Below, piece by piece: positions 3,953 to 63,244 of a stretch of 64,000 nt of DNA. A model generated the notes under the pieces. The model had not been told where the DNA came from, did not search any database, and was given only the letters and a program-made list of their open reading frames with translations. Every line of letters begins with the position of its first letter. Within the stretch, counting starts at the first letter, position 1. This DNA is from Podarcis cretensis (taxonomy: Eukaryota). Made by a program: the position numbers and the translations under genes. The stretch lies in the NCBI GenBank assembly GCA_951804945.1, contig OX638150.1, positions 56,482,001 through 56,546,000 of the forward strand, given 5' to 3'.

Positions 3953-4131
3953 AGATAATCCTGTACATGATGAAGTCCTATCAGATATAACTTGATAGGA
4001 TTTCCATTGAATAGCAACAATTGCTCATTATGACCATGATGTCAAGATTGATGTGGTTTTGCGATTTTGAGGAGGGTGGAGATTCTGCACATACTGACAG
4101 CTATCTTTTTTTCCGTTGTTACACATATAAA
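3953..4131 (+). promoter_or_regulatory. Proximal promoter of IL13-like copy A
   Basis: TATAAA 4126-4131; GATA CTATCT 4101-4106; RUNX TGTGGTT 4052-4058; AP-1-like TTGCTCA 4021-4027; NFAT TTTCCA 4001-4006. All are retained in the copy B promoter. Confidence 0.7.
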
Positions 4132-4196
4132 TATTCAGCTTGCAAAGGAGCAACAAGCAGTAAGGATTGTTGTAGTGCCTAATAATCAAAAGGACA

Positions 4197-4355
4197 ATGC
4201 CCGCGTTTCTGAAAGCAATCCTGGCAATCTGCTTGTTGGTAGAAATTGTTTCTACCACTCCATTAAGACAACCAGAACTGATGGATGATAGAAAATTTAA
4301 AATATATGTTGCAAAGTTAAACACCAGCCTTGGTCCAGCATGTGAGAGCTTAAAG
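4197..4355 (+). CDS. IL13: IL13-like copy A exon 1 (signal peptide + helix A)
   Basis: ATG at 4197; 53 codons; strong donor AAG|GTAAGT. Confidence 0.9.
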
Positions 4356-7300
4356 GTAAGTCAAATATCATATTTGTTTTTATTGTCATGTCATTATGTA
4401 TTGTGGCCAATTTATTGCTCATTGAACAATCACAAAGAAGGCAAGGAGGATGTTTTGGTATTAAACCAACTTCCGTTGGCAAAATGTGCTAACTTTTCTC
4501 TCTCTCTCAAAATGTGCTAAGAAGAAGAAGAAGAAAAGGGGTTGTACTTTTTTACACAACATAAATGGTTCAATAGGATGTATCACTTTACTCAATATTC
4601 AGATTCATTCCTTGGAAGCATCAGTGTTTTATCTTTCTAGGAAACCTTTAACAGCAGCATGTTGATGATGCTACTGATTCAGAATCTTTACCATGATTGC
4701 CACTTTAAAAAAGAAATATATTATTATTTCGCAAGTGTATAGGTATTAGACAAAATCTTCATTACATTATTAATTCTAAACCACATCAGAACTTTCCTTT
4801 CATTCAACAATGATTTCAGTAATTATTCACTGATGTATGCTGCTTTGAGCACTTTGCAGAAAGGTAGGATAGAAAGTGTAATACAGTAAGTAAATAACTA
4901 TTGGATAAAAATTGTGCTGCTGAAAGCTTAAGATATTTGCGAGTTGCTGTTAGCAGACCGGGCTAGTATCTAATCTAGAATCATAAGCATTAATATAAGC
5001 AGAAACCAGTAACAATTATTTAGTGAATATGTTCTCAGCATAATGAGACAACAAGAAAATCCCAAAGTAATCTCCTTTCTTTGTAAAATCTAGAACTGAA
5101 AGTTACAGGTCACACATTCTGCTCTGCCCAGGGACCAGAATCCAGAGATATGATGCTGAAGTCCATGGCTCTACAGTGTATCTTAGAGCAACTGGCACAA
5201 TATACATGATACTGGTCCACCTATTACCCCTTTAACCATGTTCCCTCATGCTGGTAGGCTTCTGTGCATGAAATATATAGGAACAAGCTGCCTGTAGTAG
5301 ATTGTTTTCACAAATGGATTCAGGTTTCTTCTATATGAGGGCAAATGTGTTCCCCTCACTCAGTTCAGCTTGCATGGTTTACAGTTTTAGGCTTTTAAAA
5401 AAAGTCTTCCTGAAGTCCTTTGCAGAACATCATTTTTTCAGGAACACCCAGCCTGGTATCTTTGACAAACCTACAAATGAGCCATGATGCTGGCAATTGG
5501 TTATCCCCAACATCTGGTAATCGCACATACGCTGCCTGTGGAGGTGAAGACTTCATGTTGAATTACTGTAGCCATTGAGAAACTCCTTCTCATTGAATCA
5601 GTCTGGTCCATGTTTGAAGAAGACCAGCAGGCACTTCCTTCCTCTAAAATGGAAATGAGAGCGGGTGCAGGAAACAGTTGCCCAAGGTATAGCCAGCGAG
5701 TCAGGACTCGCTTGCCAAAGTTTCCTTCCTTAACCAATTTATTGCCTTTTGTTTTACAGAATTCATCTTGTGGTAATGAAGAAATAAGAAAGATTCACTT
5801 TGAACATAATGCTGAGAAAATTGTAAGTGAAAAGTTTATGTCCTTAACCCAAAATGTATAGCTTGAAAGTGTTTAGCAGCAAAAACCGAGCTGTTTGGGG
5901 CATGTGGTGGGTGGGTTGAACAGACATTTAGAAAATCTTCTGTAATTTATATGGCTACTTTATTGAGGAGTGTCCACAGTTGGCATCAAGCCATTCTTTA
6001 TTCATTATTTTGAAATGCTACAGATTGCTGTCCATATAGTCAAAACGTTTGTTGCTATGGCAGGGCAGTGGAAGGGACACTAAATTATCAGGTTGCAAAA
6101 AAGCAATTCCACTGAAAAAGTTCTCAACACTTGGGAATTGCAACACAATTTCCCAGTACAGGATAAAATATAAATTATGCATTGGAGAAAATTGCATTTT
6201 TTCATAAATATCAATATATTACTTTTTATTTAATTTCTGCTTTCCTCAGTTATAAAGGTTTTTGGATGCGCTGCTTCTCAGCCTGCTACTTCATTTGATT
6301 CAGGCAGGTCTCTTCACAATACGTGATATGGTTCAGGCTCATAGAACTTTAAACCACTATGAAAAATGTGGTTGCAGAAATTTACAAACTATGTAATGCC
6401 TTGTTAGGGACGTGGGTGGTGCTGTGGGTTAAACTACAGAGCCTAGGACTTGCCGATCAGAAGATTGGCAGCTCGAATCCCTGTAACGGAGTGAGCTCCC
6501 ATTGCTCGGTCCCTGCTCCTGCCAACCTACCAGTTCAAAAGCACATCAAAGTGCAAGTAGATAAACAGGTACCACTCCGGTGGGAAGGTAAACGGTGTTT
6601 CCGTGCGCTGCTCTGGTTCGCCAGAAGTGGCTTAGTCATGCTGGCCACATGACCTGGAAGCTGTACGCCGGCTCCCTCAGCCAATAAAGCGAGATGAGCA
6701 CCGCGACCCCAGAGTCGGTCACAACTGGACCTAATGGTCAGGGGGCCCTTTACCTTTACCTAATGCCTTGTTATGACCAACCAGGGGTATGTAGGAAAGG
6801 AGCCTTGCTTCTGCAAGTGTTGAGGCCTTCTCATTAAATCTTTAAGCCTGTCTCAGTCTGGAGTACAAGGAAGTACTTAGTTGGGAGAGAAACAGCAGAA
6901 TCCTTGCCATGTCTATTCACAAGTTACGTAGTCCTACTGAATTCATTAGGCTTTACCCCACTGTAAGTGTGGTTAGAATTGCAGCCTAAAGCTGTATTGT
7001 CATACACTCTTGCCTTGAAGTAAGTCCTACTGAACTCAGGAGGGCTTACTTCTTAGAAGGCATGGTTAGGATTTCAGTCTTATAATCTTGGAAGTGACAT
7101 CCTTCTAGAATGACATGTGCTTTTTTTAGAATATTGTTATTACACTTCAAAGAACATGTTAAAAGACACACATGATTTTTGTAATTATGTATGCCATGCA
7201 AGTAGCTGACCAAGGGAAAAACATCAGGGATTGATCCGCTATAGCATGAAACATAAATAAATTAGATTATACATAATGATAACGAGTAACTTGAGTCTTG

Positions 7301-7963
7301 AGAACATTATCTCCCTAAACAAGTAGTTCAGTTAAAAAAAGTATTGTGTCAAGTAAGAAATATGAACAAACCTTGTACTCAGTATGTATTGAAGTAGTCA
7401 TTCTACATTCAACTTTGAACTTTTCTCAACAGTGTCAAACTTACAAAAACGTATTTTTGGATGTCCACTGTGCCCTCGATAAAGCTGCAAAAAGCAGTCC
7501 AACTGAATGCAACAAAACTGTGTCTAAGATCCAGCCACACCCAGAGCTGTTTGACAACCAAGTGAGTATTCTCTGAACATATATATTTCCCATCAGTGAG
7601 AATCTTGTGAAAATCCAATCTTATTCGCTGACTCAGATCTTATCAGATGTGCGGAAAATCTGAAGAGAGATTTGCTTAACCAAACTTTGATCCAGCAGGT
7701 CAGATAGGCCTTTTGCAAGGCACAGCCACAGAATGATGAGAGAAGCTCTCAGACCTGTGAGAATTAATCAGTACTTAAATACGATCAGAATATGGGCCAA
7801 GAAAATGTGTGGATGAGCCTGTGGTAGAGAAAAAGTTTGCCCCTGCCCCTTTCAGACACTATTGGGGAGGGATTCCAGTATGGGATATATTTTTACAAGC
7901 ATATTTATAAATTGCTTTATCTTGACCTAAGAGATCAGCTCTAATCATCTGTCTCTAAAACAA

Positions 7964-8001
<38 letters not shown>

Positions 8002-8222
8002 ATCTTCTGAATGAGCCAAAATTCGTTCAGGCCTGCTTCTACAAATTACCGTTTTGGTAGCTTTGCACTGTTGGCGCTGTGCAGCCATATCAACTCTCCT
8101 TTTGTCTCCCTTTAAAGACCAGCTGCACTTTACCAAACGATGATGACATGCTAATGAAGGAATTCTGCCTCAGACTACAAAACTACGTCAGCCACTTATA
8201 TGCCAACTGTGCGAAGAGCTAA
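4197..8222 (+). CDS. IL13: IL-13-like short-chain four-helix cytokine, copy A (151 aa, 4 exons: 4197-4355, 5760-5822, 7433-7561, 8118-8222)
   Basis: Four exons joined by phase-0 GT-AG introns (159+63+129+105 nt). Protein: MPAFLKAILAICLLVEIVSTTPLRQPELMDDRKFKIYVAKLNTSLGPACESLK|NSSCGNEEIRKIHFEHNAEKI|CQTYKNVFLDVHCALDKAAKSSPTECNKTVSKIQPHPELFDNQ|TSCTLPNDDDMLMKEFCLRLQNYVSHLYANCAKS*. It has a signal peptide, a TATA box, an AU-rich 3'UTR and a helix-D F-x-x-x-L-x-x-Y motif, and lies in the RAD50 locus. The signal LKAxLA..ExVxxTPL and the C-terminus resemble avian IL-13 as I recall it. Confidence 0.85.
5760..5822 (+). CDS. IL13: IL13-like copy A exon 2
   Basis: Acceptor ttttgttttacag, donor |gtaagt; 21 codons; 16/21 identical to copy B exon 2. 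Confidence 0.88.
6407..6760 (+). mobile_element. Sauria SINE in copy A intron 2
   Basis: 13-bp TSD taatgccttgtta; empty site in copy B (~17500). Confidence 0.9.
7433..7561 (+). CDS. IL13: IL13-like copy A exon 3
   Basis: Acceptor ttttctcaacag, donor |gtgagt; 43 codons; homologous to 15927-16046(-). Confidence 0.88.
7964..8000. repeat. (CTA)n microsatellite in copy A intron 3
   Basis: Direct inspection. Confidence 0.9.
8118..8222 (+). CDS. IL13: IL13-like copy A exon 4 (helix D, stop)
   Basis: Polypyrimidine tract + taaag acceptor; 34 codons + TAA; MKEFC shared with copy B. Confidence 0.88.
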   Translation, partial: TSCTLPNDDDMLMKEFCLRLQNYVSHLYANCAKS

Positions 8223-10196
8223 AAGTGTACATCATAAGGAGTAAGAAGATGTTTGTTTCATAGGAAACCATGGCATCTGACATTGTCCTGGAAACCAACA
8301 CTTCATTTGTGTTTGTTATTCTTAATGTCTGCTATCGAAAGGGTTAAAGCAATAATTAATTTCTCCAGTCAGGAAAAAAAGAAAATCAATAATAATACAA
8401 ACTACCCACATCAGTGAGCTCAAAGAGCCTTGAGCGTCATCATATGTATTTGGAGGCTGCTACCGTGGGCAAAGATTTGAGGACCAAAATCAAATCCACA
8501 GCATTCGTTTAAAGTCCATGGCTTTCTTCCAAAGAATCCTGGGAACTGTAGTTTGGTAATGGGGCAGGGAGTTGTCGCTTTGTGGTGGGTAAACTACAGT
8601 TCCCAAGATTATTTGGGGTCACAAAAGAACATCTCCTTAAAAAATGACTGGAACAAAGAACAGACCCTCCAAGTGCCCTATTTTCCAGGGACATTCCTGA
8701 TTTAGAGAAGCCATCTCGGTTTCTGATTTGATCCCAGAATGCCCCTTCCGATCTTCAGGAGGAGGGGGGGTTGTGGGATCACGACCCCGCCCACACTCAC
8801 TCTGCGAGGCTGGCGTCAGCCTCGCAGGAGACAGGGATTCACCCAATTAGCATACCCTGTGGCGCCAGCCAATTGGCTGGTGGCAGGGGCGGGCCTTCCT
8901 AGGGCCACTTAAGGTCAGGGCAGCCCCTGGCTCGCCCCCTTTCTTCCCTGGAGACGACGCAGAATGTCCTGCTTTTCCTTAAGACATCCCTATTTTAATT
9001 GGAGAAGTGTCGGAAGATATGGAGTCATCCGACCCCCAAACTGTATGAAAGCAACCCTGTACTATATAGGAAAGTTTTCTTAATGTTTCATGTATTATTA
9101 TATGTTGGAAGCTAGCCCAGAGTGACTGGGGCAACCCAGTAAGATGTGTTGGGTATAAAATTATCATTCTTGAATGGGACGTCCCTATTTTCATCAGAGA
9201 AATGTTGGAGGAGGGTATGAAAGAAGAAGAAGCTCTCTCGAAGTCTGGTTGTGCCCAAGTGTGGCAGCAGCAGCCTTTAAGTGCCCATCTAGGAACTGAA
9301 GGTGGAAACAGGTTGAACCAGAAGCAAAAAATTTAAGGCAAATATAGTACAGTACAGCAATATTCCTCCCTCTTATCCCACAGGAGAGTCCATGGATTTA
9401 GGGCATTTTCATATGAGACACTTTTTCAGACTGCATGTACACCGTGCATTTCAGTCAGATGGCTTCCCCAAAGAATCCTGGGAATTGTAGTTTGTTAAAA
9501 GTGCTCTGTGTGGGTTGCATTTTCTATCAAGGCATGCCTTAACATCAGCAGGGAATCCATTTTTATTTTATTTCTTAAATTTGTTGTTATATAGTTGCAA
9601 CTGACGACTTTTTACCAAGCAGTAGTTTAACATGGTGTGTGTGTATGTCACTGCTGTCTGATTTGTTCTGTCAAGTCCTACAGAAAATGTCAGCATAAAT
9701 CTTGGGCAGATGTGTGGTAAAGTGGTTGTCTGCATCTATCCATCCATTCATAAAGATGGAGGGGTGTGTGAAAGCACTGAAATAGAGTTTATTTCCTCTT
9801 AGCAGTTTCATGACATTGGGTTGAACTTATTTATTTCTGTTCTATTTAACATATTTAATATTTTATATTATAAATATTTTCTTATCAAGATTGGAAAACA
9901 AACCTGTGATTAAGTGTTACAATAAATGAGATATTTTGTTGAAATTAGTAACCATAAGAGTTATGACCATTATTTAATATTTAAAACCATAGTTATATAT
10001 TTTCTTGTTTGTAGTTATGTAATTGGTACTGTTATTGTTTTCATAAACTTTCCTCATTTTGTACTGAAGAATAATTTTATACATGTTTGTACTGCAATTG
10101 CATTTATTCTGTATTTAAATTGATATGGATTTCTTATGTGCTGTTTTTATATTAAGTTAATAATGAAAATATTTAAGTTACCGAACACACAATAAA
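8223..10196 (+). other. AU-rich 3'UTR of copy A ending at polyA signal AATAAA 10191-10196
   Basis: Several ATTTA/TTATTTAT motifs at 9560-10180; the AATAAA context is conserved with copy B. An earlier AATAAA is also present at 9921. Confidence 0.6.
8661..9219. mobile_element. Non-autonomous DNA transposon in copy A 3'UTR with a GC-rich internal insert
   Basis: Inverted ends CAGACCCTCCAA ... TTGGAG(GAG)GGTATG; absent from the copy B 3'UTR. Confidence 0.6.
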
Positions 10197-11036
10197 ATCT
10201 TGAGCAAGAGTGAAGTGTTTTCCTTTGATTTTAAGAAGACTTGGATCGAGTCATTTGTGAAGCGGTATGAATTGGGCTTGACATTACACTTTATTGGGTA
10301 AAGCTGAACCAGCAACAAGGATTACAAACCCAATAAATTTGTTCACCTCACACTTTTCAGTGCATTTGCTCATCACTTTCCTAAGCACAAAAATATGTAT
10401 TTTTTAAAGATTTATTTTGCTAGGGTGATGGAGTGCTTTAATTCACTGTAATTGTGCACACTTAAAATTCGAGTATTCTTTTTACTAAAACGAGCCCAGG
10501 AAGGGAAATATATCTACACTAATACAAATAAGACTTCTAGAAACAGTTTAAAACAACCTTTTAAAACAGCTTAAAGCTCTTCAAAGCGATCACCTGCTCT
10601 GCAACTAAGTACTATGCACTTGAATCCCTCGCACAAAATTGTGACACTCTGGAGAATGGTCACATTAAGCCTTGGCCTAATCGTCCTCAGTATTCCCATT
10701 TGTACAGTGAGATGGAGGGTGGACTGTGTTTTACAAGGCCTTCTGTGTGCTTAATTCTGTAAATACGTACGTCAAATTCGTGAACATTTGTTTCTGCTTG
10801 TGGCACACTCCTAATTGCACTGGACTCAACTTGCCATTCTCCACTAGCCACCCTGGTCTCACCTCTGGGCTATTGCCAGGCTTCACCTCAAGCCCCACTC
10901 CTGATAGCAACACTTTGTCAAAAACACTAATAAACAATTAAAGAAAAGAAGAATTGCACTGGTATTGCCCTGAATGGATGAGTGGGTGTCTATCAGTGTG
11001 TGGAAATGCCGGGATGGTGAGAAGAGTTGGACTCAC

Positions 11037-12089: not shown

Positions 12090-13994
12090 CTGTCTCTCTC
12101 CTAACAAAAGTCTTTCTCATTCTCTCTTTCAGTTAGTGGGAGTACTGACTTGCCTCTCCAATGCCTTATCTTGATGGCTTATAAGGAAAGCCCACCACCC
12201 TTATTACTGTACTTTCTTATGCTGCAGTCTTACCCAAAGCCCACATCCCTTCTCATGACATAACACATTCCTAAACACACTTAACTTCTTAAAGGACACT
12301 TGAAGGAGTAATAATAACTACACAGGTTCAGGTTTCTCTGCAGTCCTTGCATAGCCTACAATTGCCACGCAAATGTTGGGACCTTTGCAAAAATGCTTAA
12401 GCCATCACGGCTTCTCACTTTGTCATACAGAGTCCCAGGACTGGTACACACCAGGGCGAGCTGGGGATGGGGAAGGAGAGATTGGTGTAGGAAGTACTCA
12501 CAGAGTGACGGAGGATGGTGAGGCAATGGGACACAAGAACCAGAGCAGCAGGACCCATCTCCAAGGACAGAGAAGCCCCTGTCTCCTCAAACACAGCAGG
12601 CTCTGAGGCATAGGGAGCAGAAAGCTGTCCAGGTGGGGCTCGCTAGCTCTGAGGGGAGGCATGTGATTCCTTAGCTGGAGTAGGCTGAGAGCAGGTGAGG
12701 CTCACTTGCCTCATCAAGCCCACATGCTGCAATCAGCATGCAGAGTACAGAAGGGCAGCGGAGCTGTGTCTGCTCAACTACTTGGATACTTCAGGATCTC
12801 TGAGGGACTGTGCTTTGGTTTGGACTTTGGCCATGTGGATTGACTCCGGACATACCTGTCGTATTGTCTTGCTGCCAGGTAGGCCAGGGATTTGGGACAG
12901 GTGTGCAGGTGATTCAACCAGGATTCACCACAGCACCAGAATGCTGCAGTTGCTTACACAGTCCTAATTTGCTCAGAAGTTTGAAACACTTAAGAAAAAG
13001 GGAGGCTTGTGTATCCTTGAACTCAAAAGCTTATATGTCCCTGGTCCCTAAAACAAACATTGGCGTACCTCATATCATAAACCTGTGCAATTGCAACAAT
13101 AATACTCACATACTATAGTCTATATATACACACACACAACCCTATAGTTAGTTGTATTATTGATTTGGTGTTTTCTTTTGCCCTCAGGCTTCCCTTGCAC
13201 ACAATACATAAATTCAAAGACTTCTGTGTTTAAAATGCTGCAGTTTTGTGTGTTTACTCTAATAACTTTGGTACCTGAACAGGAGAAAACGTCCAAGCAG
13301 TGATACTGATGTAGAATAAAGTGTTCCCATTTGCACCTGAGGAATGTTGGAGGGTGAGGCCTGGCACAAAGTATCTGAGGGTTAAGTTGTCAGATACCAC
13401 TCTCTCATTGTAATATCTCTTTCACATTTCCCTTGCGGGGGCCAGGCTTCTCTCATACCCATGGGCAAAGTCCAGCTGCAATCACAATTGCAAATAAGGA
13501 CCCTCCCGTGTGGAAGTTCCTGAGTGGGGCTTGAAGAGGAGCTTATGATGGTGCAGAGGTAGACATACAGTAGGTGGCTGGTGGATAATGGGAAGTCAGG
13601 GATAGTGGAATTTAAGATGTTCCACGTGCAGAAACAAACGTTCATGAAATAGACCAGATATCTATGGAATTAAGAATGTGAAGGGCATTGTAAAAAGTAC
13701 TCTTTCCCAACGCTTCGTACAAATGGTAATAATGAGAGTGAGTAAGTTAAGGCTTAATGTAATCATTCTATGGGTACCTCCAGAGTCCAGGCTGTCACTA
13801 TTTTGCAGGAGGGATTCAAGTAGGCAATAAACCTTATTTGAAACTTGTATTAGTATTGATATGTTTGCCTCCCTGGGCGCCTTGAAGTGAATGCAATACT
13901 GGAATTTTAGGTTTGCAGAATGAAAGTGAATTAAAGCACTCTATCTCCCTAGCACAATGAATTGACCTAAAAAGCAAAGGCTAGTGTGAGGTGA

Positions 13995-14064
13995 GAACGC
14001 CAGGCGTTCTCTGGTCCATGGGGTCACGAAGAGTCGGACACGACTAAACGACTAAACAACAACA
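13995..14064 (+). mobile_element. BovB (RTE) LINE 3' end
   Basis: GTCCATGGGGTCACGAAGAGTCGGACACGACTAAACGACT + (CAA)n tail; TSD agtgtgaggtga. Confidence 0.85.
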
Positions 14065-14248
14065 AGTGTGAGGTGAACTAATTTATTTAGTTTGTGATCT
14101 TTGCTACAGGTTCAGATTGCCCAACGGAGTGTAATGTCAAATGGAAATGTAAACTGTTTCAAAAATGACTCTATTCAAGCTTTATGGAGATATTTTCATA
14201 AATATAAAGGGAAAACAATCAAGGGAAAACAGGAGTCTCGCTTGATAT

Positions 14249-15484
14249 TTTATTGTGCGTTTTGTTACTGAAACATTTTAATTCTCAACTTAATATATAA
14301 AAGGCACATAAGAAAACCATATTAGTTTAAATATAGTATTAATTTAATTGTAATACAAACATGTATAAAATAATTATATAGTACCAACTTAGTAACGGTG
14401 TCAATAATATAACTAAAAAGAATACAATATGTAACTTTAACTATAACTTTAAATATTAAATAATGGCCACAACTTAAAAGTCTTACTGTTACTGATTTCA
14501 ATAAAATATTTCTCTCTAGATGTGCTCAGCATTATTGCATCACTTAATCACAGGTTTGTTTTCCAATGTTGATCAGAAAATACTTAGAATATGCAACATT
14601 AAATATGTTAAATAGAACAGAAATAAATAAGTTCAACCCAATGTCATGGAACTGCTAAGAGGCAATAAACACTATTTCAGTGCTTTCACACACCCCTCCA
14701 TCTTTATGAATGGATGGATAGATGCAGACAACCATTTTACAACACATCTGACCAAGATTTATGCTGACATTTTCTGTACAACTTGACAGAACAATCCAGA
14801 CAGCAGTGACATACACACATGCACCATGTTAAATTACTGCTTGGTAAAAGGTCATCAGTTGCAGCTTTATACTAAAAACAACACAGAATAGCAAATAACA
14901 AAGAATAAGAAATAAAATAAAATGTGATTGCCCTTAGATGCTCAGGCATGGCCATACAACGGGACACTTCTCCATTAGAACAACCCAATTTAGGGACAAC
15001 TGTTTCTTCATGGTTCAGTGGCTTTTTTTTTTTTTTTTTTGGTTTTAGGAGATGTCAGAGATCTTTGCCCTTTCTACTCTCCAGCCCCCACACCCAAAAT
15101 TCCAGGGAACTGTAGTTTACCCATTACAGAGCTATAATTCCCAGCCCCTAACAAACTGCAGTTCCCACGATTCTTTGGTGGAAAGCCATGTGCTTTAACT
15201 GTGCTATAAGTGAATGGTGTGGATGTGACTCCAGTCCTCAAATCTTTGCGCAAAACATCAACCTCCAAATACATATGGCGAAGCTCAAGGGGTCTCTGAG
15301 CTCGCTGCTGTGCGTTAGATTGCATTATTATTGATTTATATTTCCTGGCTTAATAAATTAATTGTTGCATTTCCCTATTTGACTGCATACATTAAGAATA
15401 ACAAACATGAATGAGTTGTTGGTTTCCAGAACAATGTCGGGTGCCATGGTTTCTTATTGGGGGAAAAAGAGATCCTCCTAGTTC
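14249..15484 (-). other. AU-rich 3'UTR of copy B ending at polyA signal (rc 14249-14254)
   Basis: Homologous to the copy A 3'UTR; cacAATAAAat context shared. Confidence 0.6.
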
Positions 15485-15604
15485 TTATGAAGTACATTTT
15501 TTCTTGTCCACGTAGCAGATATGTAAGCTTCTGACGTAGTCCAATAGAGCTGGACAGAATTCCTTCATTGGCCTGCTACCAATGTTTGGCAAAGTGCAGT
15601 TGGT
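15485..15604 (-). CDS. IL13: IL13-like copy B exon 4
   Basis: cttcttttaaag acceptor; 39 codons + TAA. Confidence 0.88.
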   Translation of the reverse strand, partial: TNCTLPNIGSRPMKEFCPALLDYVRSLHICYVDKKKCTS

Positions 15605-18600
15605 CTTTAAAAGAAGATGGGGGGGGAGGAGAGTTAAATTGACCATACAATTCCAACAGTACAATGCTAATAAAATGGTAATTAGGAGGAGGAGGCCTGA
15701 GCTTATTTTGGCCCATTGAAAAGATTTATTTTTTATTGGTTTTCCCGACAGTTGATTAGAGCTGACCTCTCAGGTAAAGTAAGTTAAAGCAATTTGTAAA
15801 TACATTTGTAAAAATATATCCCAACCCACCGAGAATCCCTTCTGAACGTTTAAAAAAGGGGGCGCAAACTATTTCCCTACTATGTCTCACTAATGAGAAA
15901 TATATACATTTACAAAAAATACTCACATGGTCTTCATACAGAGAGTCGGATGGAAGCATATTTGATACAGTGCTGTTGCAAGCACTTTGAGAGACATTTT
16001 TCAGAGCCTCCTTGACTTGGCAAAATACTCTGCCGTAAGTTTTGCACTGTTGAAAAAAAGGTTTAAAATTGAATGCAGCATGACTGCTTCAACGCAGTTT
16101 GAATGCAAGGTTCATTCATTTTTTTTGTCATTTGAGGCGATACCTTTTTATTGCACTATCTGTTTAGGAGGAAAATGTTCTCTAGAATTCATATGTACAG
16201 TCATACCTCGGGTTGAACGTGCTTCAGGTTGAGCGCTTTCGGGTTGTGCTCCACGGCAACCCGGAAGTAACAGAGCGCGTCACTTCCAGGTTTTTCCGCT
16301 CACGCATGTGCAGACGCTTAAAATGATGTTACGCGCATGCACGGAAGCAGCAAAACGCAACCTGCGCACATGCAGATGTGCCGTCGCGTCTTACGTTCCA
16401 TTCAGGATGCGAACGGGGCTCCGGAATGGATCCCGTTCACATCCCGAGGTACCGCCGTATGTTGATCTGACAGATTGGTGCATGTTACTCATTATCGGTC
16501 CATATAATAATGCTATAGCAGATCTATTCCTGATGCTTTTCCCTAGGCAAGCCAGTTGCATTGTATACACATTTTCAATTATGCTGAGTATAATTTAATC
16601 TGGTTTTTGAAGTGCAATAGTGCTGTTCAGAAAAAGCATGTGCCCTTCTAGCAGGTTGCCAACCAGACACATGACATAGTAACTATGCAGGTGCCCCTGC
16701 AACCCCAGAACTCTGAGCGTCCTCTGGTATGTGCAGCTCTGGAAAAGGCATTCCCCTTCTTCTCCAGTGCGCTTCAGTGACATATATCAAATGATACATG
16801 TACACTAATCTTCTAGCATAACACAGCAAGAAGCGTGAGACATCGTAGAGCTAACCTATGTAATTATTTACACACTATGTACAGACAAAGGAGTCATGGC
16901 GTCCTCTTTCTCGAGCTCCGAGAGAAGAAACAGGCAGAAGTAAAAGCAAAAGTACAGTGGTACCTCAGGTTGAGAACTTAATTCGTTCTGGAGGTCTGTT
17001 CTTAACCTCAAACTGTTCTTAACCTGAGGTACCACTTTAGCTAATAGGGCCTCACACTGCCACCATGCGATTTCTGTTCTCATCCTGAAGCAAAGTTCTT
17101 AACCTGAGGTACTATTTCTGGGTTAGCAGAGTCTGTAACCTGAAGCGTCTGTAACCTGAAGCATCTGTAACCCGAGGTACCACTGTACAGTACAATAAGT
17201 ATATACAGCGGAAGAGATAAGACTGTCTTCCATTCCCGCACTCTTCTCAGAGAGGCATGTGATTTACACCAATCTCTTCTGCAGCATCGGAGGCATGAAA
17301 TACTAACAAGATGAACACCTGGAGACTTCAAGATTGAAGACTCCTTAGAAAAAGCCCCAGTGAGTTCCATATGACTTACTCCAAGGCAAGAATGTATGAC
17401 AGCAATAGGCTGCAATTCTAACAACATTTATCTGGAAGTAAACTCCAATGACTTAAGTAAGACAAGGCTCCTTTTCCACATACCCCTGGTTGGTCATAAC
17501 AAAGCATTTCATAGCTTGTAGATTTCTGCCACCACATTTTTCTTAGTAGTTTAAAGTTCTATGAGCCTGAACCATATCATGTATTGTGAATAAAATGAAG
17601 TAGCAGGCTGAGAAATGGCACACCCAAAAACTTTTATAACTGATGAAAGCAGAAAACTAAGTAAAAAGTAATGTATTTATTTATGAAAAATGATGCAATT
17701 TCCCCCAAAATGTAATCTAGCATTGTAGGTCACCCCAACAAATCTCCTGTACTGAGAAATTGTGTGGTAATTTCCAACTATGGAGAATGTTTTCAGTGGA
17801 ATTCCATTTTTGTGATGTGTTTTTCATTTAGTGTCCCTTCCATTGACCTGCCATAGCAACAAACACTTTGACTGCTTAGATAGTAATCTGTAGAGAAGGT
17901 CTCAAATAAAATGCACAAGTTGTGAGACTCCTATGAAGGTTCTCAAGGTCCAAATATAGCATTTCAAAATAATGAAGGAAGAATGGCTTGATGCCAACTG
18001 TGGGCACTCCTCAATAAATTAGCCATGGCTGATGTTTGAAAATTATGGAAGATTTTCTAAGTGTCCATTATGTCAAGGACATAAACATTTTGCTTACCGT
18101 TCGCTCAGCATTAGGTTCAAAGCGAATCTTTCTTATTTCTTCATTACCACAAGATGATTTCTGTAAAACAAAAGGCAATAAATTGGTTAAGGAAGGAAAA
18201 TTTTGGCAAGCGAGTCCTGACTCACTGGCTAGAGTTTGGGCAACTGTTTCCTGCTCCCGCCCTCATTTCCATTTTAGAGGAAAGAAGCAGGAGAAGTGCA
18301 TGCTGGTCTTCTTGACAGCCTTCAAACATGGACTAGGCTGATTCAATGAGAAAGACTGTCTTAGTGGCTATAATAATTCAACATGAAGCCTCTACCTGCA
18401 AAGGCAGGGTATGCTTAGTTGCCAGATGTTGGGGACAGCCAACTTGGGATGGCAATTGCCACCATCAGGGCTCATTTGTAGACTTGCCAAAGATATGAGG
18501 ATGGACGTTGCTGTGAAAAGGATGTTCTGCAAAGAACTCCAGGGAAAACAATTTTTTTTAAAAAAACAACAACCCTCATGCTGTAAACTTTGCAAGCTGA

Positions 18601-19726
18601 ACTGAGTGAGAGGAACACTTTTGTCCTCATAAAGAAGAAACAATATTTTGAAAACAATCTTCTACAGGCAGCCTGTTCCTGTATATTTCATGCACAGAAG
18701 CCTACCAGCATAAGGAAACATGGTTAAAGGGGTAATAGGTGGATTTGTATCATGTGTATTGTGCCAATTGCTCTAAGATACACAGGGAACGCTATGCAGC
18801 CATGGACCTCAGCATCATATCTCTGGATTGTGGTCCCTGGGCAGAGCAGGATGTGTGACCTGTAATTTCAGTTCTAGATTTTACAAAGAAAGGAGATTAC
18901 TCTGAGGTTTCCTTGTTGTCTCATTGTTCTGAGAGCATTCACAAAATTACCATTACCAGTTTCTGCTTATATTAATATTTATGATTCTAGATTAGATACT
19001 AGCCTGGTCTGCTTATAGCAACTAGCAAATATCTTAAGCTCTTAGCAGCAGCCTAATTTTTATCCTGAAAATGTACACAGTTATTTATTCATTACATTTT
19101 CCACCCCACCTTTATGCAAGGAGCTCAAGGTGGATACATCACTGAATGAAAGTTCTGATGTGGCTCAGGATTATAAAGTATTGAAAATTTTGTCTAGTAG
19201 CTGCACATTAACAAGATAATAATGTATTGCCTTTTAAAAGTAGTGAACGTTTTAAATATTCATTTTGATTATTTCAGTTCTGCAACATGTACAATACCAA
19301 ATTGGGTATCATTGTCAACATGCCTGCATGTTAAGTAAAGCAATACATCCTGTTGAACCATTTCTGCTGTGTAAGAAAGTGCTCCCTTCTTATTCTTAGA
19401 GAGAGAGCACATTCTGAGAGAGAAAGTAACAACATCTGGCTCCCATTAAGTTGATTCAGTAATAAATCTTTCCTCCTTGCCTTCTTTGCAATTGTTAAAC
19501 AAGCAATAAATTGGCTGCAAAACATAAAAATAAATAAATTATGTACCTCCAGGTTCTCGCATTCCGTAACAAGCCGTTTCTGTAATATTGTTAGTTTTCT
19601 TTGAAATCTGCACTTGTCCGTTTTCTGTACCTCTCTTCTGAACTTGCCTAGTTGTTTTAACGGAGTAGTAGAGATAATTTCTACCAGCAAACAGATTGCC
19701 AGGATTGCTTTCAGAAACACAGCCAT
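15485..19726 (-). CDS. IL13: IL-13-like cytokine, copy B (160 aa, 4 exons: 19726-19547, 18160-18098, 16046-15927, 15604-15485); syntenic IL13 position and orientation
   Basis: Phase-0 GT-AG introns (180+63+120+120 nt). Protein: MAVFLKAILAICLLVEIISTTPLKQLGKFRREVQKTDKCRFQRKLTILQKRLVTECENLE|KSSCGNEEIRKIRFEPNAERT|CKTYGRVFCQVKEALKNVSQSACNSTVSNMLPSDSLYEDH|TNCTLPNIGSRPMKEFCPALLDYVRSLHICYVDKKKCTS*. It is the first gene downstream of RAD50 and on the same strand, as IL13 is in mammals. Confidence 0.88.
15927..16046 (-). CDS. IL13: IL13-like copy B exon 3
   Basis: ttttttcaacag acceptor, |gtgagt donor; 40 codons. Confidence 0.88.
16198..16457. mobile_element. Tc1/mariner (Tigger-like) MITE in copy B intron 2
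   Basis: TA-flanked, imperfect TIRs CAGTcaTACCTCGG / CCGAGGTACcgCcG. Confidence 0.75.
16955..17185. mobile_element. Tc1/mariner MITE in copy B intron 2
   Basis: TA TSD; TIR CAGTGGTACCTC / GAGGTACCACTG. Confidence 0.9.
18098..18160 (-). CDS. IL13: IL13-like copy B exon 2
   Basis: ttttgttttacag acceptor, |gtaagc donor; 21 codons. Confidence 0.88.
19547..19726 (-). CDS. IL13: IL13-like copy B exon 1
   Basis: ATG at 19726; 60 codons; donor GAG|GTACAT at the position homologous to the copy A donor. Confidence 0.85.
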
Positions 19727-19794
19727 CGTACTTTTGATTATTAGGAGCTACAGACAAGATCCTTACTGCTTGTTGCTCTTTTGCAAGCTGGATA

Positions 19795-19930
19795 TTTATA
19801 TGTGCAACAGGGGGAAGGAGATAGGTGGTGTGGAATCCCCACTATCCGCAAAGCGTAAAACCACATCTATCTGATTATGTGGAAGATCTCTCAATGCAAA
19901 ATGAGTAATTGTTGCTGCTTAATGGAAATC
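19795..19930 (-). promoter_or_regulatory. Proximal promoter of IL13-like copy B
   Basis: TATAAA (rc 19795-19800), GATA 19819-19824, RUNX AACCACA 19859-19865, AP-1-like TGAGTAA 19902-19908, NFAT TGGAAA 19923-19928; collinear with copy A. Confidence 0.7.

Positions 19931-29268: not shown

Positions 29269-63244
<33,976 letters not shown>

Follow-up and report, generated by a model that had tools for sequence, protein, structure and literature searches.

Inverted IL-13-like twin genes between KIF3A and RAD50 in Podarcis cretensis and the possible gain of a terminal cysteine pair by one of them

Human IL-4 contains three disulfide bonds, Cys3-Cys127, Cys24-Cys65 and Cys46-Cys99 (PMC3352089), and its bond between helices A and D is also given in PMC10448976. 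Its four exons map to helix A, the AB loop, helices B-C and the CD loop with helix D, respectively (PMC4905449). According to the same source, disulfide patterns in the IL-4/13 family are lineage-specific, with salmonid paralogues having four and six Cys and shark IL-4/13-2, Xenopus IL-4/13 and chicken IL-13 containing the four core Cys alone (PMC4905449). A pair of the Cys3-Cys127 type is absent from three of the four non-mammalian sequences compared from its supplement; the fourth, chicken IL-4, which is printed there to about residue 104, has an N-terminal Cys5 with no predicted partner (PMC4905449). Section 3.4.4 of a 2022 review assigns IL4 and IL13 to the interval between KIF3A and RAD50 and names reptiles as one of the groups required for dating the split of the two genes (PMC9465101). 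A literature search, with most subscription journals outside its scope, returned no study of lizard IL-4/IL-13 genes.

The window analysed here, a stretch of 64,000 nucleotides from Podarcis cretensis, contains two genes, copies A and B, which were born by an inverted duplication of about 7 kb. Each arm of this duplication carries one four-exon gene with GT-AG splice sites and phase-0 introns, copy A encoding 151 amino acids on the plus strand (exons of 159, 63, 129 and 105 nt) and copy B encoding 160 amino acids on the minus strand (exons of 180, 63, 120 and 120 nt). The features of the window are as follows:

3999..10900, plus strand: arm A of the inverted duplication, with promoter, four exons, introns and 3' region (blastn matches of 68-93% identity with the opposite strand at 19930-13522)
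4197..4355, plus strand: copy A exon 1, putative signal peptide and helix A, with Arg32 at 4290-4292 (AGA) and Cys49 (supported by the P. lilfordi orthologue P0003)
5760..5822, plus strand: copy A exon 2, AB loop, with Cys57 (exon-2 letters in the loose end of a spliced contig)
7433..7561, plus strand: copy A exon 3, with Cys75, Cys87 and Cys100 (joint from 7561 to 8118, GT..AG, in run X19)
8118..8222, plus strand: copy A exon 4, coding part, with Cys120, Cys134, Cys148 (8208-8210) and the stop codon TAA (8220-8222)
8223..8237, plus strand: post-stop K-C-T-S-stop, the start of the A 3'UTR and homologous to the terminal codons of B (13/15 identical)
13522..19930, minus strand: arm B of the inverted duplication (blastn self-comparison)
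15485..15604, minus strand: copy B exon 4, with Cys124, Cys138, Cys151 (15517-15515), Cys158 (15496-15494) and the stop codon
15927..16046, minus strand: copy B exon 3, with Cys82, Cys90 and Cys104
18098..18160, minus strand: copy B exon 2, with Cys64
19547..19726, minus strand: copy B exon 1, with Cys39 (TGC, 19612-19610) and Cys56 (supported by the P. lilfordi orthologue P0002)
29270..63170, minus strand: presumed RAD50, approximate coding span, a synteny marker on the same strand as copy B (exon translations and familiar motifs)

The name RAD50 reflects motifs that we take to be characteristic of this protein. Exons that are presumably of the KIF3A type lie on the plus strand between roughly 34 and 12 kb upstream of the window, and a septin-type P-loop exon on the same strand, about 83 kb before the window, likely belongs to the septin gene that we assume to flank KIF3A. 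By these motifs, both copies fall into the KIF3A-RAD50 interval, as expected for the IL-4/IL-13 locus, which bears out the placement of B at the IL13 position in the initial annotation. Copy A is inverted relative to both RAD50 and copy B. It thus differs from human IL4, which lies on the same strand as RAD50, whereas A is an inverted, young copy of B.

Protein searches returned seven proteins, two of which (P0001 and P0007) represent read-throughs from exon 1 into the intron and were excluded from the Cys counts. The remaining five comprise the P. lilfordi orthologues of A (P0003, CAI5766590.1; 128/151 residues identical) and B (P0002, CAI5766591.1; 151/160 identical) as well as three outgroup proteins (P0004, P0005 and P0006) from Vipera latastei (KAM3843465.1), Naja naja (E2320_015459) and Pogona vitticeps (XP_078241883.1), all of which we take to belong to Toxicofera and hence to a single sister clade. 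A gecko, skink, teiid or non-Podarcis lacertid homologue was not found in these searches. Between the two Podarcis species, A differs at 23 of its 151 residues and B at 9 of 160; many of the changes in A sit in helix A, which in IL-4 binds the receptor (PMC10448976). Copy A has an open frame, GT-AG sites and a TATA box at -71, and a 946-nt contig of run X19 joins 7561 to 8118 across a GT..AG junction and continues into exon-2 letters. Although this splicing was seen in one run, which is guessed to be RNA and carries a species label other than the best-matching one, copy A is likely transcribed. For copy B, P0002 is the sole source on splicing and on its state across species. The N-terminus is hydrophobic in a simple scan, and a structural model of the B orthologue P0002 (pLDDT 58) has a helix at residues 4-19. 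The predicted pI of the mature chain is 6.9 for A and 9.2 for B, with four and three N-glycosylation sequons, respectively.

The two encoded proteins share 52% identity, whereas each shows 30-39% identity to the outgroups. In a tree of the seven proteins, the clade uniting A and B was not starred; although the tree leaves this grouping open, it is clear from the pairwise identity and the alignable introns. At the DNA level, the copies are 80% identical in the 3'UTR, 84% in intron 1 and 85% in the downstream DNA. The coding blocks of the mature exons differ at 113 of 342 bases (33%) and intron 1 at 204 of 1307 (16%), with the excess in coding divergence spread over all three codon positions; it may reflect either selective pressure acting on the helices or introns that have been homogenised. 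The comparison of the two copies gave no sign of positive selection (dN 0.43, dS 0.45), third positions having diverged as much as first and second ones. Intron 2 of A contains a 356-nt interspersed repeat (6406-6761; 89% identical to 36117-35762) that is missing from the matching place in copy B, so that its insertion postdates the duplication and could help to date it.

Both copies have the four coding exons, phase-0 introns and short exon 2 of IL-4/IL-13 genes, and the four core Cys can be assigned by exon and spacing to residues 57, 87, 100 and 120 in A and 64, 90, 104 and 124 in B. In the ESM Atlas, they match clusters of short-chain four-helix cytokines with feature similarities of 0.89-0.93, B reaching a TM value of 0.57 against an IL-4 cluster and A one of 0.50 against IL-15. 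Chicken IL-13, which lies next to RAD50, shares a mature start of the T-P-L type and the four core Cys, and by eye its T-N-C in the CD loop and, 14 residues on, an F-x-P-A-L motif in helix D resemble B (PMC4905449, Fig. S10); in the same by-eye comparison, it differs in having four Cys rather than the eight of A or the ten of B. Based on the position between KIF3A and RAD50, the Atlas placement and this likeness, the intact four-exon genes A and B would encode IL-13-like cytokines. Searches with the Pfam families IL4 (PF00727) and IL13 (PF03487) gave no row at E up to 10 (5/5 and 3/3 queries), and PDB sequence searches returned no cytokine match. The five full-length squamate homologues (P0002-P0006) are all labelled hypothetical or uncharacterized, and the four that were scanned miss Pfam IL4/IL13. 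A profile of these five database proteins, run over 184 kb (the window plus 120 kb upstream), produced 11 rows, of which eight are the exons of A and B, with E values of at most 9e-5, and three have E values of at least 0.56. This squamate profile thus detected no separate IL4 between KIF3A and RAD50, although a divergent IL4 could escape it. Genome-wide searches with an IL4 profile and the cobra protein yielded nothing credible, but since both missed A and B themselves, these blanks are uninformative. A fragment alignment that misplaced exons 3 and 4 of A was dropped.

The two genes differ at their 3' ends. Exon 4 of A closes with TGT GCG AAG AGC TAA (stop at 8220-8222) followed by AAG TGT ACA TCA TAA (8223-8237), and exon 4 of B (15604-15485) with GTG GAC AAG AAA AAA TGT ACT TCA TAA. 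The alignment of the two exons is gapless over 120 nt (83/120 identical), which sets the TAA of A opposite an AAA codon for Lys in B and the post-stop TGT opposite the codon for Cys158. The stop and the in-frame K-C-T-S-stop behind it are exactly as first described. Correct, too, were the reported absence from A of the Cys at the start of helix A, whose place opposite Cys39 (TGC) in B is taken by Arg32 (AGA), and the numbering of Cys39 and Cys158 in the 160-residue B protein. What had been overlooked is that A retains Cys148 four codons upstream of its stop and that B has a second C-terminal Cys, Cys151. The chain of P0003 terminates where that of A does. Among the 40 of 114 rows listed, none shows a change at 8220-8222 in any of the four runs covering the site (organisms H, F, G and E); four runs were examined out of 24, and contigs lose rare variants. 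These four runs and P0003, which do not amount to a population survey, suggest that the stop of A is fixed across the genus. TAA with A as the next base makes a tight stop context. It is hardly credible that A is decaying or that its tail is still produced by stop read-through: A does change faster than B between species, but it has an open frame, GT-AG sites, the TATA box, a spliced contig in run X19 and eight Cys that are all kept in P0003, and a read-through product would carry an odd number of Cys.

The homology of the post-stop tail of A to B exceeds chance. However, its 13/15 identity is also reached by 127 of 270 ungapped 15-mers in the A/B 3'UTR, 559 of 905 in intron 1 and 384 of 597 in the downstream DNA, so that the tail is preserved no better than ordinary 3'UTR. 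Over the 24 bases that end the coding part of A (eight codons), 12 differ from B, as opposed to 3 of 18 in the stop and tail, and identity accordingly jumps at the stop from 7/18 (8202-8219) to 15/18 (8220-8237). This leap, together with the 56 of 63 identical positions in exon 2, could be explained by gene conversion between the arms, in which case the tail of A would be copied from B and uninformative about any past A protein. We consider this quite improbable, given that the identities in the UTR, intron 1 and downstream DNA are all comparable, making a special tract unnecessary.

Eight Cys are present in mature A, all of them kept in P0003, and ten in mature B. The three outgroup proteins (3/3) likewise have eight mature Cys, with none ahead of the helix-A Cys, and their chain ends at a Cys 14 residues after a K-E-F-C motif. 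Measured from this motif, Cys148 of A lies at +14 and is followed by three residues, and the two C-terminal Cys of B lie at +13 and +20. The Vipera, Naja and Pogona proteins and the P. lilfordi homologues thus share the eight-Cys plan, K-E-F-C and a terminal Cys at +14 with our locus, and the former three differ from B in lacking both Cys39 and Cys158 and in stopping at the +14 Cys. The co-occurrence of the two Cys proposed in the initial annotation holds: both are found in 2/2 B proteins and neither in 2/2 A proteins or 3/3 outgroups, leaving even counts of ten and eight. Within helix B, an F-C motif is found in B and in 3/3 outgroups, and A has Leu at this place and a Cys four codons later (7457-7471 vs 16022-16008), a shift that is retained in P. 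lilfordi A; one core bond has likely slid by one helical turn in A.

The pair had also been likened to the Cys3-Cys127 clamp of human IL-4, and here the spacing points elsewhere. From the CD-loop Cys to the terminal Cys there are 28 residues in human IL-4 (Cys99-Cys127) and likewise in A, 27 in each of the outgroups and, for B, 27 and 34 to its two C-terminal Cys. This spacing puts Cys148, a Cys that A kept and that corresponds to B Cys151, at the position of IL-4 Cys127 and leaves Cys158 out of register. Cys39, in turn, is 25 residues from the exon-2 Cys, as opposed to 21 in IL-4. A true homology of the pair to Cys3-Cys127, with loss in A and Toxicofera, would explain that the terminal Cys lies two residues from the C-terminus in both proteins (129 residues in IL-4, 160 in B) and that both end alike in K-C-x-S. 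It is nevertheless highly improbable, because both spacings disagree, the pair is missing from 3/3 squamate outgroups as well as from the shark, frog and chicken IL-13 sequences, and the CD loop and helix D of B resemble, by eye, those of chicken IL-13. MAFFT placed Cys158 of B on the terminal Cys of the outgroups by means of a six-residue gap; we rejected this placement since the DNA of A and B aligns without gaps through this region into the UTR. Given the spacing and the presence of A's plan in 3/3 outgroups, Cys39 and Cys158 of B likely represent a lineage novelty that is at best convergent with the IL-4 clamp. The four-exon layout is shared with human IL-4, and B is predicted to mimic the bond by which IL-4 links its helices A and D at the ends of the chain.

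The post-stop tail had been read as a fossil of a loss in A, but it is kept at the level of the UTR only, and the state of A is that of the outgroups. Our tentative preference is that B gained Cys39 and Cys158 by a route that included stop loss, while A kept the older eight-Cys plan. A one-base change of TAA to AAA would have added five UTR codons, including TGT, to the B protein; a Cys would have arisen on helix A level with the tail Cys, and the helix-D Cys would have shifted by one residue (from the register of 148 to that of 151). The K-C-T-S behind the stop of A would accordingly be no relic but the counterpart of the UTR source from which the B tail was drawn. Several points favour such a gain. 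It requires two events fewer than a gain followed by loss, A shares its number of Cys and the +14 Cys with 3/3 outgroups, and the N-terminal segment of B, counted from the Pro of T-P-L/T-A-P to the exon-2 Cys, is the longest (42 residues, compared with 35 in A, 30, 30 and 33 in the outgroups and, by eye from Fig. S10 of PMC4905449, 28 in chicken IL-13), making B the outlier. The four-core-Cys sequences of shark IL-4/13-2, Xenopus IL-4/13 and chicken IL-13 were also counted for a gain. Moreover, 200 of 2203 UTR starts (9%) yield a short Cys-bearing tail, so that stop loss is not far-fetched.

Possible as well, though with less weight, is that the pair arose in stem lacertids ahead of the duplication, without homology to IL-4, and that A lost Cys158 by the nonsense change and then Cys39 by a substitution that removed the free thiol. 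Both A/B differences within the tail (2/2) are synonymous, as expected in 5-10% of neutral cases, which leans toward a tail that was once coding in both copies; however, the synonymous-looking change at 8234 in run X19, which shows no stop change among the rows listed, occurred in a stop-bearing lineage and weakens this argument. The tail also ends in an in-frame stop opposite that of B, A evolves faster than B across Podarcis (128/151 vs 151/160), and chicken IL-13 extends to +20, so that a tail of this length may be ancient, with shortening in A as well as in the toxicoferans. Against such a loss stand the gain and later loss that it requires, the agreement of A with all three outgroups in Cys count and +14 Cys, the UTR-level identity of the tail and the N-terminal segment of B, which is the longest among all seven proteins. 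Whichever history applies, the outgroups lack the +20 Cys. Opposite Cys39, A of the window has Arg, but P0003 and P0007 have Ile, so that this residue does not fix the direction of change. Exon 1 of A is 21 nt shorter than that of B, and the best single placement of this difference is upstream of the Cys39 site, near A codons 27-29. An internal 12-nt repeat in exon 1 of B was rejected as the source of Cys39, since 86 of 500 shuffles match it.

How the Cys of either protein may pair was derived from exon position and the up-up-down-down topology (PMC10448976). In A numbering, the shared scaffold would comprise four bonds: 57-100 and 87-120, corresponding to the IL-4/IL-13 core, 49-134, linking the end of helix A to the start of helix D, and 75-148, linking the start of helix B to the end of helix D. 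The extra pair of B would sit at the same end of the bundle and hold the chain ends together like the exposed A-D bond of IL-4; it would thus be IL-4-like in action but convergent, lying about six residues farther out along helix D. AlphaFold models of P0002 reached a pLDDT of 42.3 with a single sequence and 58.2 with five sequences and returned no Cys distances. The second model, which was fed with the rejected MAFFT alignment, has helices at 24-60 and 134-159, with helix D broken at 154 and residues 158-160 below 50. Fold searches with this model retrieved generic helical bundles, with nothing at E 0.001 and a best Z of 9.6; IL-4 and IL-13 were absent among the matches listed, so that these provide no structural register to IL-4. 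When ideal antiparallel helices are anchored at 56-138, Cys39 has an axial offset of 4.5 Å to Cys158 and of 6 Å to Cys151, which thus also lies within one helical turn of it. Cys158 lies 160 degrees off the anchor face, and Cys151 is on the same helix face as Cys158, so that pairing of either with Cys39 needs a frayed end. On balance, a bond between Cys39 and Cys158 in B is predicted as somewhat more likely than not.

A less likely arrangement is a swap of partners in B, giving Cys39-Cys151 and Cys82-Cys158, in which the new Cys would not form one clamp. Cys151 is nearest to IL-4 Cys127 and, at 27 residues after the CD-loop Cys, matches the terminal Cys of the outgroups; its shift by one residue in B corresponds to a turn of about 100 degrees, and it is axially 6 Å from Cys39. 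On the other hand, the old bond of Cys82 would have to break and re-form, and Cys39 and Cys158 occur and are absent together. The two Cys might instead join two chains, since both are at exposed ends and IL-5, a neighbour in the locus family, is a disulfide-linked dimer. This possibility is very remote, considering that the A-D bond of IL-4 is intrachain and that the two Cys of B are level within one chain.

The lizard pair is a further case of lineage-specific disulfides in the IL-4/13 family. It resembles that of salmonid IL-4/13B1 and B2, which are also young paralogues one extra Cys pair apart (four vs six), although these originate from genome duplication and their extra Cys are both C-terminal (PMC4905449). 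It is tempting, if doubtful, to speculate that lacertids rebuilt a two-gene type-2 cytokine locus without IL4 when an IL-13-like gene underwent inverted duplication, with B re-inventing the terminal A-D disulfide of IL-4 by extending past its stop into a UTR Cys codon that is still unused behind the stop of A. If the pair was gained by stop loss, the origin of a disulfide would be traceable; if it was lost in A, ordinary nonsense trimming of five residues would have taken place. A and B provide a natural pair for testing the effect of one terminal disulfide. Our findings also define a squamate eight-Cys version of the IL-4/13 family that is unnamed in databases. More useful than the Cys pair itself is the result that a pair of genes in the KIF3A-RAD50 interval is not necessarily IL4 plus IL13; at this locus, the pair consists of young twins, of which one is inverted.
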